From Candidatus Lokiarchaeum ossiferum (GTDB taxonomy: Archaea; Asgardarchaeota; Lokiarchaeia; Sigyniarchaeales; Promethearchaeaceae), in the NCBI GenBank assembly GCA_025839675.1, contig CP104013.1, forward strand, positions 4,560,001 through 4,592,000: a stretch of 32,000 nucleotides of DNA, in the 5' to 3' direction. The translations under genes and the position numbers were made by a program. Below, piece by piece: positions 3,897 to 29,863 of the stretch. The notes under the pieces were generated by a model. It was not told the DNA's origin and did no database searches. It worked only from the letters and a program-made list of their open reading frames with translations. Each line of letters begins with the position of its first letter. Within the stretch, counting starts at the first letter, position 1.

Positions 3897-3930
3897 CTTA
3901 ATATGTATTTGATTATGTAGGTGAATCATA

Positions 3931-4590
3931 ATTAGTTCTGGAAAAAAAACAATCCTTTGGGATTGGAATGGAACGCTCTTAAATGATGTTGATATTGTCG
4001 TGGCCAGCATCAACTCTATATTACTCAATTATAATTTACCCCAAGTATCTGTGAATTATTACAAATCCATTTTTACTTTTCCAGTTATAGAATATTATGA
4101 AAAATTAGGGTTCAATTTTGATGATATTGATTTTTCCGAGTTGGCTAAAGAGTTCTACAACGAATATTTACCACGTTTAGAACAATGTGGATTGTATTCA
4201 CAAGTTCAATCCATTCTGACCCATTTTAATTCCATAGGATATCAGCAACACATCGTTTCGGCCATGCAACATGATCATTTAGTCGAATCTGTTGAAAATT
4301 TAGGAATTGCACACAAATTTGATTCTGTTAATGGGCTTCGGGATTTGTTTGCTGCGAGTAAAGCAGAACTTGCTCATCAAGTCATAATTGCTAATGATAT
4401 TGATGTGAAATCCACCTGGTTTATCGGAGATACAATTCACGATTTTGAAGTGGCTAAAGAAATTCAATGTCAACATGTTTTAGTAAGTAATGGGCATCAT
4501 ACGCATCAAAAATTATTGACAGTTACCTCTCGAGTTGTTCCTGATTTGTCAAAAATTTTCGGGATAATTAATAAAGAAGAAAAAATTTAG
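3931..4590 (+). CDS. HAD-superfamily phosphatase (phosphoglycolate-phosphatase-like); start probably non-canonical ATT 3931
   Basis: The first canonical start (GTG 4000) lies downstream of in-frame HAD motif I (KKTILWDWNGTLLND, nt 3943-3987). The frame opens after TGA 3922-3924 and holds only ATC 3925, ATA 3928 and ATT 3931. AGGTGAA (3919-3925) sits 5 nt before ATT 3931. Later motifs are IVSAM and WFIGDTIHD. Confidence 0.75.
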   Translation: MSSGKKTILWDWNGTLLNDVDIVVASINSILLNYNLPQVSVNYYKSIFTFPVIEYYEKLGFNFDDIDFSELAKEFYNEYLPRLEQCGLYSQVQSILTHFNSIGYQQHIVSAMQHDHLVESVENLGIAHKFDSVNGLRDLFAASKAELAHQVIIANDIDVKSTWFIGDTIHDFEVAKEIQCQHVLVSNGHHTHQKLLTVTSRVVPDLSKIFGIINKEEKI

Positions 4591-14706: not shown

Positions 14707-15069
14707 TTAATTAATTGTTAACCTTTGTGCATCTTTATATGGATCTGGGCATTCTACTGGAACTTCTAATGTTAAAATCCCATTTTTATAATTGGCGGTG
14801 GGTTCTTTATCCAAAGTTGCTGTGCACGAGAACATATATTCTGAGATGTAATCTGTTTCAGCATTGCGATGTGCAATCATACGGACTCGATCCTTTGTTA
14901 CATCAAGATGGATCTTATCTTTATCCACACCTGGAATCTCAAAAGTCAGGGTTTCAACATTTTCTTTGTCATCTTCATCGGTACATCCGCAATCGCAAGT
15001 AGGACAGGCGGGTACCCATATTCTTCTCTTAAAACTAGTAGTTTTTTTTTCTTCATTTTTTTTATCCAT
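14707..15069 (-). CDS. hsp20: small heat-shock protein (Hsp20/alpha-crystallin domain) with an N-terminal Cys cluster
   Basis: ACD-like FEIPGVDKDKIHLDVTKDRVRMIAHR...ANYKNGILTLEVP, with N-terminal CPTCDCGC. ATG 15069 is preceded by AGGTGAT (15080-15074) with a 4-nt spacer. The track's GTG start at 15078 lies inside that SD motif. Confidence 0.75.
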   Translation of the reverse strand: MDKKNEEKKTTSFKRRIWVPACPTCDCGCTDEDDKENVETLTFEIPGVDKDKIHLDVTKDRVRMIAHRNAETDYISEYMFSCTATLDKEPTANYKNGILTLEVPVECPDPYKDAQRLTIN

Positions 15070-15282
15070 TTTAATCACCTAATTATTTGGTTATTTTGGA
15101 TTAATTGATCAATTAGTACAAAATCAACATCAAATAGGTTCACCTTACAGAATAAAAGGACTATCTGGAAATTACAAATAAGAAAAAAAAATCGGAGTTT
15201 TTAAGTAACTTTATGCAACAAAAGATAATTCTAAAACTTTCAATTCAAAGTCTAAATTGAATAAAATGGGAGATATATTTTA

Positions 15283-22241: not shown

Positions 22242-23387
22242 TTATACTGAAATTCGTAAAGATTTTTGCTTAGGAGCTTCCCTTATATATCCGATGATAT
22301 ACGCAATTCCTACTAAGGAAGCTATTAACTTTGTATTTTCCAACATTCGATCGATTTCTGTATCGGTGCGGAGTAATATTGCTAAAATAATTATACAAAG
22401 AATTAGCATATAGAAGCTTCCGGGCATAACTCCAACATTGTCACTTTTATAGATTTTTTGCTCAATGAAGAAATAGATTCCAGCAATAATTAATCCATTT
22501 AATGGTGCTGCGATCCACCAATATTCAAAATGTAGTGTATTTAGTAGAATATATTGGACGATGCAAAGAATATACAAGACAATTAATACTAAAAGGCCAT
22601 AGAATTTATCTTGAATTAAGGAAACAATTTCCATCCCAATACCAGCAAAGATGATGGTTATTGCCAGATTTCGAATCCATTCTGTGGAGTTGATGGTTTG
22701 AGTTTCAGGAAACAAAACTACGGATCCATTATATATTATTGCCACAATCGTCACCAAAATGGCAAGAGCTTTGAAGGCATCAATGATATAATTGTAAAAT
22801 GTTGCCCGTGAATAAGAGCTTACTAATTTATGGGGTTTAATATGGGGAACAACCTTTGGTTGGCCCATCAAGATGATAAAGAATGGATAAACTCCCATTA
22901 TTAATGCAATGCTGATCATAAATGCTCCAGGGAGGAAAAATTCGAATAAAAAGCAAATTCCACAGATCCAGAGTGCCCAAAAACTGGTGTTATATAGAGG
23001 TTTCTTCTTTTTAGGTGTTAAACCGTGTTCGGCTCGGATAAAGAACCATCCCAAAAAGGCAAAAGAATAGGAAAGTATAGATGCCCAAATAATTATTTCT
23101 GAAAGTGCTATTTCCCACCCTTTTTGAATATTAATGAATAGGAAAATGCTCGCAATGGCACCTGTAATTGAAAAAATAAGTGTAATTAGGCGACTTATTC
23201 TGTCTAAGTATGATGTTTTCATACTCAGATAATCCATGACAAATATAATGACAAGAATTGAACTTTCAAATATGATTATTCGGGAAAAAACATTGAAATC
23301 AATGTTTTCTAATGTAATTTGTGAAATTTTGATTGTAATATAGGGGAAAAAGCACACTAACCCAAGATAGTAGTATATTTTCATCAT
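22242..23387 (-). CDS. polytopic membrane protein, unknown function
   Basis: 381 aa with about 11-12 hydrophobic segments. Convergent with the VWA gene, with stop codons 5 bp apart. Confidence 0.6.
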   Translation of the reverse strand: MMKIYYYLGLVCFFPYITIKISQITLENIDFNVFSRIIIFESSILVIIFVMDYLSMKTSYLDRISRLITLIFSITGAIASIFLFINIQKGWEIALSEIIIWASILSYSFAFLGWFFIRAEHGLTPKKKKPLYNTSFWALWICGICFLFEFFLPGAFMISIALIMGVYPFFIILMGQPKVVPHIKPHKLVSSYSRATFYNYIIDAFKALAILVTIVAIIYNGSVVLFPETQTINSTEWIRNLAITIIFAGIGMEIVSLIQDKFYGLLVLIVLYILCIVQYILLNTLHFEYWWIAAPLNGLIIAGIYFFIEQKIYKSDNVGVMPGSFYMLILCIIILAILLRTDTEIDRMLENTKLIASLVGIAYIIGYIREAPKQKSLRISV

Positions 23388-23508
23388 GAATGAATATACT
23401 TGATCTATTCGTTCTTTTCCACCGGTTTCACGGGATGTTTTTTTTTCTTGAATCAGAAGTCACCTAAGACAAAAATCGGTTATTAAGATCAATAAGAAAT
23501 AAGGTGTT

Positions 23509-24120: not shown

Positions 24121-26697
24121 CTATTCTAGTTTTAAAGAAGGATCTCCAATAAAAACGTAGTGTGATTCTCGTAAAATCATTTTTAATCTTGAATCTTCTT
24201 CATTCTCATCTGAAAAGCTTTGGGATATATTGAATAATTGTTTGTTGACTTTAAGATGGGCGCTACCTATAGATTCATTAAGAAAGATATGATTAATAAA
24301 TTCCCCCAAGTATAATTTTAGCATATCATTGAATTCATTAGATATTCGAGCAAAAATTCCAATGAAATGACGTGAGCTGATTGATTTGGTAATGTTATAG
24401 ATTTGTGTGAAAAATCGTGGGATTGATTTATTACTTTCATCGATTATCCGGACATCTAAAATCAACAAAGGTCTAAAATAGGGTAATCCTTGAAGTTCGT
24501 TTCGTTGTTTTGCGTAAGATAACATATCAATTATTTCTTGTATGCTGAGTACCTCATTGTTTGAAGTAAGGAAGTAGGATTGGCTAGGATTCTGATCTAA
24601 ATAGAACATATTTGCAGAAATGTGAATTATATTATAAATACCTGATGTAATTTCTTTTTCAATACTATCTTTTGAACTATATGAGGGATCAATAGAAGAA
24701 AAACGATCTACTAAATTCTGAAGATTATTAATTTTCTCCTCAATAAATTTCCGTTGTATTTCACCATTTTGGAACTTAAATAATGGGCAATATTGTTGTT
24801 CTTCCTCGTTCCAAACATGGGGAAACTTCTGATTTAAGTCACCTATACTTAGCATGGTGAATTTCAGATTAATTTCATCTTGTGATTTTCCCACCTTGAT
24901 TTTTTCCATTGCAAGTTTGGGTTCTCGAAATCTATATCCAAAAGCGAATTTTGATCCAAATGATGATCTTTGATCATTTAGCATTTCAAGAGGAAAATTC
25001 GGCTCATCCATAATTACATAAACTTCGGGGGTATGATCCGATCTTAAATTCAATTCTTCAATAAAATCTCGTATATTTTGAGGTAAAAAAAGATAGGCCA
25101 ACATGCCAAATTGTTGTTGTTCTAAGATAACAGTCTCATTTTTTTCAGAATGGGTTGCATTATCTATGGTCGTGCCATAAACAGGAAGATTTAGATATAA
25201 TTCATTTAAATATGGTTCATCCCAGTATTCCTTGGTTTCAATATTGTCCATTTTCGAAAACCCTGATTTATAGTAAATTTCGGAAAATAATTTAATCGGT
25301 TTTCGGGATGGAATCCTTAATTTTAATAAAATCTCTGAAGGCATCATTCCGCCAATATCCGCTTCTTTTCGGGAAATTCGACGCTCTTTTATACGATTAA
25401 TTGTAAAAGGAAGTTGTTCTTCTATAAGTTGAATAAAGCATGGGTGATCTTGAATTCCCAATTGTTTAGCACTTAACGTAACTATCTCCAAGTAACCTTC
25501 TTCAAAAAACCCTCGATGTAATGCCGCCCACCAGAAGTCTTCTTTTGAAGTAAAAATGTGGCCTCGACATATTAAATAATATTCATTGCGTGCATAGCAA
25601 TAATCCTTAAAAGAATAATAATCATCAGGAACTATGAGCAAATCTCTGTATTCTTTGATGGCTCGCACAAAATATTTTTTGTCTTTTAAATTTCTGAATT
25701 TTTTTGCCGCTTCAGCCCAAATACTTACCAAATATGTGGGAAATCCCTTAAAATTTGTGAAAAATGTGGCTAAATGTTCATACGCAAGGAATGCTGTCTG
25801 ATAGCTGCCTTGTCTGTAGCAGGTTTTTATAAATTCCCTTAAAAATTTTTTTGCTTTTGATAATTCATTATTATTTTTTAATTCTTCACAATAATTTTGC
25901 ACGATAGAATAAGCCCAAGAATTTTCTTTAATCATTTGAAGATTTACAATTGTTTGTTGCGTCAAATCTAAATTTTGTCCCGGATCCATAAGATGAACTT
26001 TTTCTTTGATCAATATATGAAAAGCTTCTTGAACGCTTTTATCAATTTTATTAAGTGAAACCAAATAAATGGTCTCAATAAATTCAATGTATTTAATAGA
26101 ACCCTCAAAAAACTGTTGATAAATATTTAAGCTAACACTTTTTAGTAAAATGGGGCGTTGATCATGGGCAATTTTTCTTAATATTTCAGAGAGTTTGGCT
26201 AAAGTACGTTCAAAATAATCATTTCGTTGATAATTTTTCTTGAAAAATAAAGACAATAGTAAAAGTTCAATGGTTTCTTTAAAATAATCCGCACGAGCGG
26301 TAAAAATTGCTAATGAATCTAAGAAATTCGCAATGCTGAAATCATTTGAAAAGCCAATTTTAACAAGAACTTTGGCTAATCGAAGCCCATTATAAATCAA
26401 ACGCGAAAAATCTTGAATTAAAAAAAGTATTTCAAATAAAAAATTATAGGCATTATAGATAAGAGGCCAATTAGCATAAAAATTTTTAACCAAGACTCGT
26501 AGATGATGCTCCCATAGATCAATTAAAATTGTATATCGGCGCATAATTTCGGAATTAGACAAATTACTTGTCTGTATTTCTTTAATTGTTGTGTTACACA
26601 ATTGAATTGCCCAATATTGTTGTTCTTGATTTAATAGTTTATCAATATGTGATGAAATTTCATCAAAATCATCGATTACATTTGTACCGTGGATCAT
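24121..26697 (-). CDS. large helical-repeat protein with a C-terminal CHAT-like (caspase-fold) domain apparently lacking the catalytic His-Gly/Cys
   Basis: ATG 26697 lies 1 nt after the actin-like stop. The C-terminal third follows the CHAT pattern: LAYLFLPQ..., VYVIMDEPNFPLEML, FAFGYRF, NIIHISANMFY, SIQEIIDML, RPLLILDVR. The N-terminal ~500 aa are alpha-helical and TPR-like by composition. Confidence 0.45.
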   Translation of the reverse strand: MIHGTNVIDDFDEISSHIDKLLNQEQQYWAIQLCNTTIKEIQTSNLSNSEIMRRYTILIDLWEHHLRVLVKNFYANWPLIYNAYNFLFEILFLIQDFSRLIYNGLRLAKVLVKIGFSNDFSIANFLDSLAIFTARADYFKETIELLLLSLFFKKNYQRNDYFERTLAKLSEILRKIAHDQRPILLKSVSLNIYQQFFEGSIKYIEFIETIYLVSLNKIDKSVQEAFHILIKEKVHLMDPGQNLDLTQQTIVNLQMIKENSWAYSIVQNYCEELKNNNELSKAKKFLREFIKTCYRQGSYQTAFLAYEHLATFFTNFKGFPTYLVSIWAEAAKKFRNLKDKKYFVRAIKEYRDLLIVPDDYYSFKDYCYARNEYYLICRGHIFTSKEDFWWAALHRGFFEEGYLEIVTLSAKQLGIQDHPCFIQLIEEQLPFTINRIKERRISRKEADIGGMMPSEILLKLRIPSRKPIKLFSEIYYKSGFSKMDNIETKEYWDEPYLNELYLNLPVYGTTIDNATHSEKNETVILEQQQFGMLAYLFLPQNIRDFIEELNLRSDHTPEVYVIMDEPNFPLEMLNDQRSSFGSKFAFGYRFREPKLAMEKIKVGKSQDEINLKFTMLSIGDLNQKFPHVWNEEEQQYCPLFKFQNGEIQRKFIEEKINNLQNLVDRFSSIDPSYSSKDSIEKEITSGIYNIIHISANMFYLDQNPSQSYFLTSNNEVLSIQEIIDMLSYAKQRNELQGLPYFRPLLILDVRIIDESNKSIPRFFTQIYNITKSISSRHFIGIFARISNEFNDMLKLYLGEFINHIFLNESIGSAHLKVNKQLFNISQSFSDENEEDSRLKMILRESHYVFIGDPSLKLE

Positions 26698-26698
26698 A

Positions 26699-27781
26699 TT
26701 ATTCCCATTCCATCCTTTTTTGCGAATTACGATAAATTTGTGATGCACCTTTCCAAATTGCGTTGGGATTTTGACTATCTTCGAATATTTGCACATTCAA
26801 TGTGATTGGGAAGCGTTTCTTAATTTGTTGTTGCAATTTAGATTTTAAATTTGGAATTTTGACCCCTTGACCACAAAGAACTATATTTTCGAGCATTATT
26901 GGTATTTGATCTCTCTCCCATGCTCTAATTGATCTCATAATAAATTCAATTAGATTATCGGATCGAATATGCGCGAGCTCTGGGATGAAGTATAATTCAC
27001 TCGCAAGAAATTTTTCTTTGTTGATTGTCAACTGATTTCCATCCGGTAAATAAATTGTAAAATCGTATTCTTGTGATCCTGTAGCAATTTCGTCAATTAT
27101 TTCATCAATTCTTAAAGAAGATTCAACTACATCTTCCTTTATTTTTTGGGCAATACTATATAGTGGATGAGTGGAAGAATATTGATATTTTTCAAATATC
27201 ACATCAATAAGATATTGCGTGATATGGTGGCCTCCGATAGGAAAAATAAAATTACTTTCAAAATTTGGAAATCCTTTAAAAATACCTTCAATTCGCGTTG
27301 AAAAATGTCCAAAATCAATGATTGTTCCTGTATCTTTTCCTAAGGCGGTCAAAATTGCTGCAGAATTTGGAATAAAGGCAAATTTTGGAAAACTCATAAT
27401 TTCTTGCAATATTCGTTTTAGTTCATTTAATTCTATTTTTGAAATATAAGATGGATAAACAATGATTAGATTTGATTCTGAAGGGATCCAGCCTTGATTT
27501 TTGAAGATTTCAGCTAAAAAATATGCAAAGGATGAGAAATCTTTGGTCTTAAGAAAATATTTAATGAGCAAGGTATCTTTAAATTTGAGTGCTTTATTTC
27601 CATAATGACGTTCTTTTCCCATCTTGGATAAACCTGTTTGGGATGAAATTTTAACTATGGGTTCATCTGAATCTGCAAATATTGATGGGTTGATAATTTT
27701 AGGCTCATAATCTCCCGCTATACCTATTTTCGTTTCAAAACTTCCTAATTCAACAAGAATGTCAAATTTTACGTCTGTGAT
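26699..27781 (-). CDS. divergent actin-family ATPase (actin/Arp-like); start probably ATC 27781
   Basis: Colinear with actin. The matches are DILVELGSFETKIGIAGDYEPKIINPSIFA (phosphate-1), TGTIIDFGHFSTRIEGIF (phosphate-2), IFPIGGHHITQYL, IYLPDGNQLTINKEKFLASELYFIPEL, NIVLCGQGVKIPNLKSKLQQQI and NAIWKGASQI. The first ATG (27622) would delete phosphate-1. AGGGGAT (27792-27786) plus a 4-nt spacer precedes ATC 27781. Confidence 0.8.
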   Translation of the reverse strand: MTDVKFDILVELGSFETKIGIAGDYEPKIINPSIFADSDEPIVKISSQTGLSKMGKERHYGNKALKFKDTLLIKYFLKTKDFSSFAYFLAEIFKNQGWIPSESNLIIVYPSYISKIELNELKRILQEIMSFPKFAFIPNSAAILTALGKDTGTIIDFGHFSTRIEGIFKGFPNFESNFIFPIGGHHITQYLIDVIFEKYQYSSTHPLYSIAQKIKEDVVESSLRIDEIIDEIATGSQEYDFTIYLPDGNQLTINKEKFLASELYFIPELAHIRSDNLIEFIMRSIRAWERDQIPIMLENIVLCGQGVKIPNLKSKLQQQIKKRFPITLNVQIFEDSQNPNAIWKGASQIYRNSQKRMEWE

Positions 27782-27836
27782 ATGTATCCCCTAATATTAA
27801 TTCAAGAAAGATTCCTAAAAAGATAGTGTAAAAGAA

Positions 27837-28529
27837 TTAATTTACATAGATATCATATAATTCACTAATACTCTGTTGCAATTTGAATTCCCGGATTTGC
27901 ATATTTAACAAATCCATGGTTTTCTTAAAATCTTTTATCACTCGTTTATAATCAATATCACTAAAACGTTCTACTTCATTTCGCTTCATGGAAAAATCTT
28001 TCAATCCGGAGTTCAATTTTAATTCTAAGTCATTGATGGATTTGATTAAACTTTCGGTGTTGGATTCATTAATTCTTCGCATTTTTCGTAGAATCGTTAA
28101 AATCGAAGAAGATGTTTGATTCCAAAGTGAATATCTGTCTTCATAAGACTTTCCTAATTGTTTAAAAAAAATCTCTGAATCACCCCAGAAATTTCCAGTT
28201 GGTGTATCATCTATTTGAACATTGGATTTAACAATCGTTGGTTGTTCTGGAACAGAAGTGGGAGGTTTTAATGTAATTTGTTTTGGTGAAATCAGGGGTT
28301 TGCCAATCAATTTCAATTTTCCTTCTTCAGGAAAGGGGGATTCGGAAGGCTGATCCTCTTTAAGAAATGACGGTGTAGAAACTTTTCCAACATCTGCACT
28401 CGTTGTGGTTTTTAACTTTGGAATTCCATCATCATCCAAATCACTTAACATATTCTTTAATTCTTGAGTTTGTTCTAATTCCTTTTTTTTTTCCTCTGGA
28501 TATTTTGAATTATTAGAATCTTCTGACAT
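27837..28529 (-). CDS. hypothetical protein: acidic/Pro-rich disordered N-half, coiled-coil C-half
   Basis: 230 aa. Residues 1-110 are low-complexity (E, D, P, S, T, K). Residues ~115-230 are helical with heptad character. It lies immediately upstream of the actin-like gene. Confidence 0.55.
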   Translation of the reverse strand: MSEDSNNSKYPEEKKKELEQTQELKNMLSDLDDDGIPKLKTTTSADVGKVSTPSFLKEDQPSESPFPEEGKLKLIGKPLISPKQITLKPPTSVPEQPTIVKSNVQIDDTPTGNFWGDSEIFFKQLGKSYEDRYSLWNQTSSSILTILRKMRRINESNTESLIKSINDLELKLNSGLKDFSMKRNEVERFSDIDYKRVIKDFKKTMDLLNMQIREFKLQQSISELYDIYVN

Positions 28530-28902: not shown

Positions 28903-29718
28903 TCAATGTTCTCCTTTTTTCTTTATATCTTTTCTTTCTATCCATGCATTCCATAGATCGAGAAAATTTTGAACTTTTTCTTTGTCAATACTATAATAAG
29001 TAAATTTACCTTTTTTCCATCCTTTAATTAGACCCTCACTTTCCAATTTTTTAATATGGTGGGATGAAGTGGATTGACTTTTCTTAATCAATTTTTGGAT
29101 ATCGCTTAATTTCAATTGGTGAGTTCTTAGCACTTCTAAAATGAGAAATCTGTCCATATTCCCCAAAACTTCTAATTTTCCAACAAGTGTTTGAAAATCC
29201 TTCTCATTATGAATTTTTGTCGATATATGGCTTGTTCTGACCTTTAAATTTTCCTTATTCTTATGCTTTCCTTCTTTCAATTCATCTGAAGCTATCAAAT
29301 CCTGAATAAGTTTTAATTTATCATCACTCATTTTCAATTTTTGTTTGATGTTGAAATTATGAAATGCTAGTTCAATAGCAGGAAGTAAATCATTAACAGT
29401 TTGGATAGGTTTGATGATATAACTTGAAGGTTCAACATTTTTTGCTTTTTGTAATGTTTCAATATCTTCATGGGCAGTAATGAATATAATTGGAATATCA
29501 TGTTTTTTTTGAATTTCATTAGCAGTATCAATTCCATCCATTTTTCCATCTAATGTAATATCCATTAAGAGAAGATCAGGATTGCTTAATTCTACTTGCT
29601 TTATTGCTTCCTCTCCTGAACTAACAATTTTTAATGGTTCATAATTCATATCGCTTAGCAAGCTTCCGATGCCCATCGCGGTAACGATTTCATCTTCAAC
29701 TATCAAAATTTTTTTGAT
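28903..29718 (-). CDS. response-regulator receiver (REC) domain fused to an ArsR-type wHTH
   Basis: REC motifs: ILIVEDE, phospho-acceptor LLLMDITL, IIFITAH, YIIKP. The C-terminus NMDRFLILEVLRTHQLKLSDIQKLIKKSQSTSSHHIKKLESEGLIKGWKKGKFTYYSI is ArsR-like. Canonical TTG 29706 would give MIVEDE. In-frame ATC 29718 (or ATA 29721) after a G5 tract at 29731-29727 gives MKKILIVEDE. Confidence 0.8.
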   Translation of the reverse strand: MKKILIVEDEIVTAMGIGSLLSDMNYEPLKIVSSGEEAIKQVELSNPDLLLMDITLDGKMDGIDTANEIQKKHDIPIIFITAHEDIETLQKAKNVEPSSYIIKPIQTVNDLLPAIELAFHNFNIKQKLKMSDDKLKLIQDLIASDELKEGKHKNKENLKVRTSHISTKIHNEKDFQTLVGKLEVLGNMDRFLILEVLRTHQLKLSDIQKLIKKSQSTSSHHIKKLESEGLIKGWKKGKFTYYSIDKEKVQNFLDLWNAWIERKDIKKKGEH

Positions 29719-29863
29719 TATTATTTCCCCCTACTAATTAGAATCTGCTTTGATGGAATAAAAAGATTTGACGAAACTTTATTTAATTTTTTTCTCAAAT
29801 ATATTATAAGTTATTAACTAATTTACTTAAAGAATTTTCTTTCTTTTTTTTCCTATAAGGAAT

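Follow-up and report, generated by a model that had tools for sequence, protein, structure and literature searches.

Initiation of translation at AUU, AUC and AUA is known from both bacteria and eukaryotes. In Escherichia coli, infC and pcnB begin at codons of this kind behind a Shine-Dalgarno (SD) sequence, and AUU, AUC and AUA are alternative initiators in NCBI translation table 11. In eukaryotes, the same codons are decoded at reduced efficiency by the initiator Met-tRNA (Met-tRNAi) under control of the eIF1/aIF1 type. The subject of the present analysis is an actin-like gene on the minus strand of a 32,000-nucleotide (nt) stretch of the 'Candidatus Lokiarchaeum ossiferum' genome (contig CP104013.1, positions 4,560,001 to 4,592,000; referred to as the window), whose conserved N-terminus is encoded upstream of every canonical start codon (ATG, GTG or TTG). 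The best explanation, and a very probable one, is that a full-length protein resembling the actin-related proteins (ARPs) is made from a near-cognate AUH codon (AUU, AUC or AUA; ATH in the DNA), most likely AUC 27781. The arrangement resembles the bacterial cases in that a near-cognate AUH codon at a fixed distance from an SD sequence would be read by the initiator tRNA and is missed by standard gene finders. It differs in its host, an Asgard archaeon with initiation of the aIF1/aIF2 type. Eukaryotic near-cognate initiation depends on scanning and Kozak context, whereas here the SD sequence serves as the positional signal.

Within the Asgard archaea, a 'rare ATT start codon' with a ribosome binding site has been inferred for AtubA of the Kariarchaeaceae (Heimdallarchaeia) (PMC13394414). 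AtubA is likewise an Asgard cytoskeletal gene whose deposited protein was without its first beta-strand, which was restored by way of an upstream ATT with a plausibly spaced ribosome binding site. However, AtubA belongs to another Asgard class and another protein family and is a single gene, with no genome-wide or comparative analysis reported there. 'Ca. L. ossiferum' itself has four actin homologues, Lokiactin and three ARP-like proteins, and the transcripts of all four were detected by reverse transcription quantitative PCR (PMC9834061). The gene described here is one of the three non-Lokiactin loci.

The reading frame is open from an in-frame TAG (27793-27791) down to a TAA (26701-26699). 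After the TAG, the minus strand reads GGG ATA CAT ATC, then ACA GAC GTA AAA TTT, then GAC ATT CTT (the DIL of actin strand 1), GTT, and GAA TTA GGA AGT (the ELGS of the phosphate-1 loop). The earliest in-frame ATG, GTG or TTG is ATG 27622-27620, 53 codons past ATC 27781-27779. The motif AGGGGAT (27792-27786) is followed by the 4-nt spacer ACAT and then by the ATC. For comparison, the hsp20 gene on the same strand (start region 15067-15080), taken as the reference geometry, has AGGTGAT at 15080-15074, the spacer TAAA and ATG 15069. Re-reading of the sequence confirmed these coordinates, the hsp20 geometry and the lack of any ATG, GTG or TTG ahead of the conserved N-terminus, all as given in the original prediction. 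The 55-nt gap to the upstream gene contains neither ATG nor GTG, and its sole TTG (27805), although in frame, is separated from the gene by TAA (27799-27797) and TAG. The possibility was considered that the start is supplied by a frameshift from, or read-through into, the upstream open reading frame (ORF). The upstream gene, however, uses a different frame, and two stops in the frame of the actin-like gene (TAA 27799 and TAG 27793) intervene, so neither read-through nor a simple frameshift can do so. A 56-codon stretch would remain open by chance in the non-coding DNA of this genome with p ~0.02.

The gene encodes a full-length, divergent, ARP-like actin homologue of about 360 amino acids. Read from ATC 27781, the coding sequence (26699-27781, minus strand) comprises 360 amino acids and the TAA. 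When the stop-to-stop frame was compared with Pfam, residues 11-351 matched positions 7-380 of the 410 in the Actin profile (PF00022; 3e-27, 95.6 bits against a cut-off of 27), and actins of the PDB aligned at an E value of 2e-23, with query residue 11 opposite actin residue 8. An AlphaFold model was built on 19 orthologs, with residues counted from the ATC. It had a predicted local distance difference test (pLDDT) score of 82.5, and Foldseek aligned it to actins with template modeling (TM) scores of 0.78-0.82 across about 360 columns. Strands were placed at residues 8-11, 16-21, 29-32 and 34-41, all of which precede the first canonical Met (residue 54); residues 1-53 also hold the peptides FDILVELGSFETK and IGIAGDYEPK. 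According to the model, the four-subdomain actin fold is complete only when the 53 codons ahead of the ATG are translated, and in the 307-amino-acid form from ATG 27622, strands 1-4 would be missing, along with the subdomain 1 core sheet and the phosphate-1 loop.

The genome is a single contig of 6,035,313 bp with three 16S genes and has four actin-family loci, three of which, including this one, are divergent and are not Lokiactin. The strong actin locus, Lokiactin, lies at 3,924,777-3,925,886 and scores 434 bits; the gene described here has a far lower score and shares about 25% identity with Lokiactin. The high similarity expected of a Lokiactin was not found, and by this comparison the gene would fall outside that group. 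In the PDB alignment, the nucleotide-site motifs were altered: ELGSF replaces DNGSG (phosphate-1), DFGHF replaces DSGDG (phosphate-2), Asn replaces Gln137 and GQG replaces GGT (adenosine). Asp154, Gly156, Ser14 and Lys18 are retained, and bulky residues occupy the positions of Gly15 and Gly158. Partly degenerate motifs of this kind would be typical of ARPs, not of a filament-forming actin.

The codons between the ATC and the first ATG (27778-27623) specify actin strands 1-4 including the phosphate-1 loop, and they are conserved in orthologs. P0002, an ortholog with 81% overall identity, has about 80% identity across residues 7-56, and a 40% identical ortholog conserves the N-terminal stretch as well. 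In 18 orthologs from other relatives and in 69 from metagenomes, a canonical start, mostly ATG, was found 1-12 codons ahead of strand 1. The N-terminus is therefore expected near 27781, where the ATC and the ATA stand, 6 and 8 codons ahead of the DIL of strand 1, respectively, and inside the range of ortholog starts. The same-genus ortholog in G001, which is likewise syntenic with a 230-amino-acid gene, has no canonical start ahead of strand 1. These sequences indicate that the canonical start was lost in this genus. A protein-pattern scan of the Joint Genome Institute (JGI) metagenomes for sequences of the P0002/P0003 type found nothing close.

Public protein sets hold two versions of the gene product, a 362-amino-acid form (P0001 and P0006, beginning MHITDV, from ATA 27787) and a 307-amino-acid form from ATG 27622 (NCBI/UniRef). 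The latter bears out the prediction that gene callers truncate the protein. It is explained by the Prokka calls of the L. ossiferum study, which admit canonical starts only, and the protein was probably analyzed in its 307-amino-acid form in that work (PMC9834061). Both calls were found not only in this genome but also in a second Lokiarchaeum assembly (contig of 6,274,825 bp), in which the encoded N-terminus is identical. A 307-amino-acid call would hardly be expected there from a canonical-only caller had an upstream ATG existed. Together, the identical N-terminus and the short call in the second assembly argue against a base-call error.

In the proposed mechanism, the mRNA would be translated from a near-cognate AUH codon directly past the in-frame TAG. 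The 30S subunit would be placed by the modest SD-like AGGGGAU 4 nt upstream. The initiator Met-tRNA would pair with AUC despite a third-position mismatch, so the first residue would be Met, as in near-cognate initiation generally. An ancestral ATG, still carried by the orthologs, would have given way to this start within the genus, and the same mode of initiation would operate in at least some 25-30 other genes of the genome. The lower efficiency of such a start might be a way to set expression.

The start is very probably a near-cognate codon within 27787-27779. The 3' end of the 16S rRNA is GGATCACCTCCA, and the SD consensus is GGAGGTGATCC. Ahead of 2,297 confident ATG starts, GGTGAT was found 3-5 nt upstream and GTGAT mostly 5 nt upstream. 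AGGGGAT differs at one position from AGGTGAT, which is complementary to the 16S 3' end. ATC 27781-27779, in frame and three codons past the stop, is favored because this G-rich motif lies 4 nt upstream, within the usual range of the genome (3-6 nt). The same ATC was recovered independently in the relaxed-SD genome scan described below. Motifs of the GG(G/A)GAT type are also present at the orthologs in G007, where the ATG follows after 6 nt, and in G001, where an ATA follows after 8 nt. On the sequence evidence, ATC 27781 is the probable start codon, held with reasonable but not high confidence.

Several observations weigh against this assignment. The duplex of AGGGGAT with the 16S 3' end (-5.8 kcal/mol) is equaled or exceeded at 27% of ATG starts and at 15% of random sites. 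The motif is weak because of its central mismatch, and GGGGAT was enriched merely 1.4-fold before ATG starts, against 6.6-fold for GGTGAT. P0002 is called with its M three codons downstream of the position of the ATC. Finally, the internal ATG 27622 is preceded at ideal spacing by AGGTTTATCC, for which a stronger duplex (-8.4 kcal/mol) was computed, and only 4% of random sites are as strong. This motif is either a chance occurrence or the signal of an additional short isoform, which could exist beside the full-length protein.

The alternative that survives best is a start at ATA 27787-27785, two codons upstream of the ATC, by initiation without SD guidance, for instance on a very short leader. 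This is the first table-11 start past the stop and the one used in P0001 and P0006, and ATA follows SD sequences in 7 cases elsewhere in the genome. However, the G-run abuts the codon (spacer 0; duplex -2.9 kcal/mol), and spacers of 0-2 were almost never seen at ATG starts, while the choice of ATA in the public call probably reflects a longest-ORF rule of the pipeline. Use of the ATA is therefore unlikely, if still a serious contender, and a start at any codon other than these two is a little less likely again. A leaderless mode of initiation was also examined: no convincing TATA element was found 24-30 nt upstream of the ATC or the ATA, by an inspection by eye that is not decisive. The original prediction had named ATC 27781, behind AGGGGAT, as the initiation codon. 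Its non-canonical start is upheld for the interval 27787-27779, with the ATC the better placed codon, although the SD motif is weak and one public annotation uses ATA 27787.

It is also conceivable that the true product is the 307-amino-acid protein, with the 53 codons upstream left as a relic outside the translated region. ATG 27622 is the only canonical start, it has the ideally spaced SD-like motif, and the short form is the one present in NCBI/UniRef. Against this, the short product would have no strands 1-4 and no phosphate-1 loop, the upstream codons are conserved like the rest of the protein in the 81% ortholog and are conserved in the 40% ortholog too, the Met encoded at 27622 is conserved within actin-family proteins as an internal residue, and all 87 orthologs examined start ahead of strand 1. 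Exclusive synthesis of the short protein is thus very improbable. Still more doubtful is initiation further in, for example at ATT 27760 or at GTA 27772. Among the ATH starts of the genome, ATT is the most frequent, and P0002 is called from the codon aligned with GTA 27772. However, there is no SD-like motif ahead of either codon, ATT 27760 lies inside strand 1, GTA is two positions off AUG, and the M of P0002 may be just the first canonical codon, perhaps GTG, open to a standard caller.

The original prediction also held that ATH initiation recurs in this genome and named a genome-wide scan as a check. Sites were scored when the codon lay 3-6 nt (aligned) behind an exact SD 5-mer and within 12 codons of an upstream stop, had no canonical start nearby and opened at least 120 codons. 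Sites of the same kind opening fewer than 40 codons served as the control. ATH codons made up 28 of the 98 long-opening sites but only 2,174 of the 23,861 control sites (odds ratio (OR) 4.0, p 3e-8), and the claim of recurrence is borne out by this enrichment together with the spacing and domain evidence that follows. ATT was the commonest ATH start. AT-rich codons such as AAA, AAT, TAT and TTA were not enriched in the same scan. TTT was enriched too (OR 2.9), which is due only in part to double counts in T-runs and T-rich leaders. With a relaxed SD (6 of 7 matches), ATH accounted for 7 of 31 sites (OR 2.9, p 0.02), and the actin-like ATC is in this set. The spacing of the ATH sites showed a sharp peak at an aligned spacer of 5 (16 cases, compared with 0-8 elsewhere; OR 6.4 and p 8e-6 against the other in-phase spacers), and ATG, GTG and TTG peak at 4-5.

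After subtraction of the background, about 21 exact-SD and about 5 relaxed-SD cases remain, or about 5% of SD-led starts, which is comparable to GTG (25). By contrast, only a handful of genes in E. coli begin in this way. An exact 5-mer SD stands ahead of only about 8% of the first ATGs in the genome, which fits a review that describes SD sequences as rare in the Lokiarchaeia (PMC12993045).

Twenty candidates and the HAD hydrolase gene of the window were compared with Pfam. In at least 10 ATH-led genes, the Pfam domain begins upstream of every canonical start. In RpoA' (ATC), Rpb1 domain 1 begins at residue 9 and the next canonical start is at codon 26. In eS19 (ATT), profile positions 2-135 are matched from residue 3, and in the Roadblock/LC7 protein (ATA), the entire domain precedes the first canonical start. 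The domain likewise begins ahead of any canonical start in a nitroreductase (ATC), in PP2C, TFE-alpha, a low-molecular-weight (LMW) phosphatase and PadR (all ATT), and in an LRR protein (ATA). The HAD gene (3919-4590, plus strand) has AGGTGA followed by ATC ATA ATT, with ATT 3931 at the optimal spacing. Residues 8-185 match positions 1-178 of the HAD_2 profile, and no canonical start occurs before codon 24, which lies past catalytic motif I. Of the two further cases in the window that had been put forward, the HAD gene is therefore solid, its domain starting before the first canonical codon. The other, a regulator with REC and ArsR-type helix-turn-helix domains (28903-29733, minus strand), is ambiguous. 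Its frame, GEIIIKKILIVEDE, gives ATA/ATA/ATC behind a G5 run, and a start at TTG 29706 shortens the Response_reg match by a single profile position, so the gene can do without a non-canonical start.

Conservation of ATH starts in relatives was evaluated for two essential genes. The rpoA1 gene (G000:C1:1914232, minus strand) has its ATC behind an exact SD. This ATC recurs in G001 and in three genomes from a second genus, and two genomes from a third genus have ATT instead; every one of these starts follows a conserved (A/G)GGTGTT. At the equivalent position, relatives further removed begin with ATG. In the eS19 gene (G000:C1:1434662, plus strand), the ATT likewise lies behind an exact SD; seven genomes from these three genera share ATT with GAGGTAA ahead of it, and ATG is the start further out. 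Two of these genomes are closed. Conservation across three genera, with two closed genomes, indicates that the ATH starts of rpoA1 and eS19 are not assembly errors and are maintained in essential genes. For the actin-like gene, a single substitution in the ATC or the ATA would suffice to restore an ATG and only one assembly was read at the DNA level, but loss of an ATG through a base-call or assembly error, or through a recent pseudogenizing mutation, is extremely improbable given a closed genome assembled from short and long reads (PMC9834061), a second assembly that agrees in the N-terminal protein and in having both calls, a G001 ortholog also without a canonical start, an intact and conserved frame, and the same ATH pattern conserved across genera in essential genes.

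These results incline us, by a modest margin over even chances, to the view that the Lokiarchaeaceae follow a relaxed, SD-guided start rule. AUU, AUC and AUA would be regular initiators, used about as often as GUG in SD-led genes, selected in core genes (rpoA1, eS19 and TFE-alpha), and perhaps acting as low-efficiency starts that set expression. The mechanism is already known in kind from the alternative starts of table 11; what stands out is how frequent and how conserved it is in Lokiarchaeia. In the literature library searched, no systematic report of such an ATH-start habit was found. Essential genes are among those affected, and the habit is maintained across Lokiarchaeaceae genera; it follows that gene sets of the Prodigal type systematically truncate proteins in this lineage. 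The gene described here is one of only four actin-family genes in a cultured Asgard archaeon that is studied for its cytoskeleton, and the widely distributed 307-amino-acid protein would misfold on expression and distort alignments and trees. Moreover, near-cognate initiation that is both frequent and conserved in the archaea most closely related to eukaryotes offers a concrete handle on the stringency of start selection based on aIF1 and aIF2.

Coding N-terminal extensions were also counted independently of SD sequences with a mixture of codon-usage log-likelihoods. The count was underpowered, with overlapping coding and non-coding nulls, and gave about 0 +/- 12 of 434 regions; it suggests only that extensions of at least 20 codons number no more than about 25. 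Autoregulation of aIF1 through a near-cognate start was considered as well and set aside: aIF1 itself begins at ATG, and the autoregulatory logic of infC has no counterpart shown here. Use of a special initiator tRNA was likewise considered and set aside: no initiator-like stem-loop with an anticodon other than CAU was found in the genome, in a check that is incomplete, with only 47 tRNAs found by aragorn. An initiator-like tRNA gene missed by aragorn lies at about 3,142,330-3,142,440 (minus strand), with A1:U72, a GGG/CCC anticodon stem and a CAU anticodon. In its D-arm region, this tRNA seems to contain an insertion or intron.

Two further ORFs have an ATH codon behind an SD sequence. At 22245-23459 (minus strand), AGGTGA is followed after 6 nt by ATT 23453, a candidate ATH start that opens a 403-amino-acid ORF matching no Pfam family; the nearest canonical start downstream is 22 codons away. 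A Hef-type helicase/ERCC4 nuclease of 814 amino acids, 1.2 kb past the end of the window (G000:C1:4593188, minus strand), may begin at an ATA behind GAGGTGA, an ambiguous case with a canonical start 11 codons on.

The actin-like gene is flanked on the same strand by two conserved partners. The upstream gene (27837-28529) encodes 230 amino acids and matches no Pfam family. The downstream gene (24121-26697) encodes an 858-amino-acid helical protein, and its ATG lies 1 nt past the actin-like stop. The order of the trio (24121-28529, minus strand) is kept beside the orthologs in relatives of two families, and the three genes may form a functional cytoskeletal unit.

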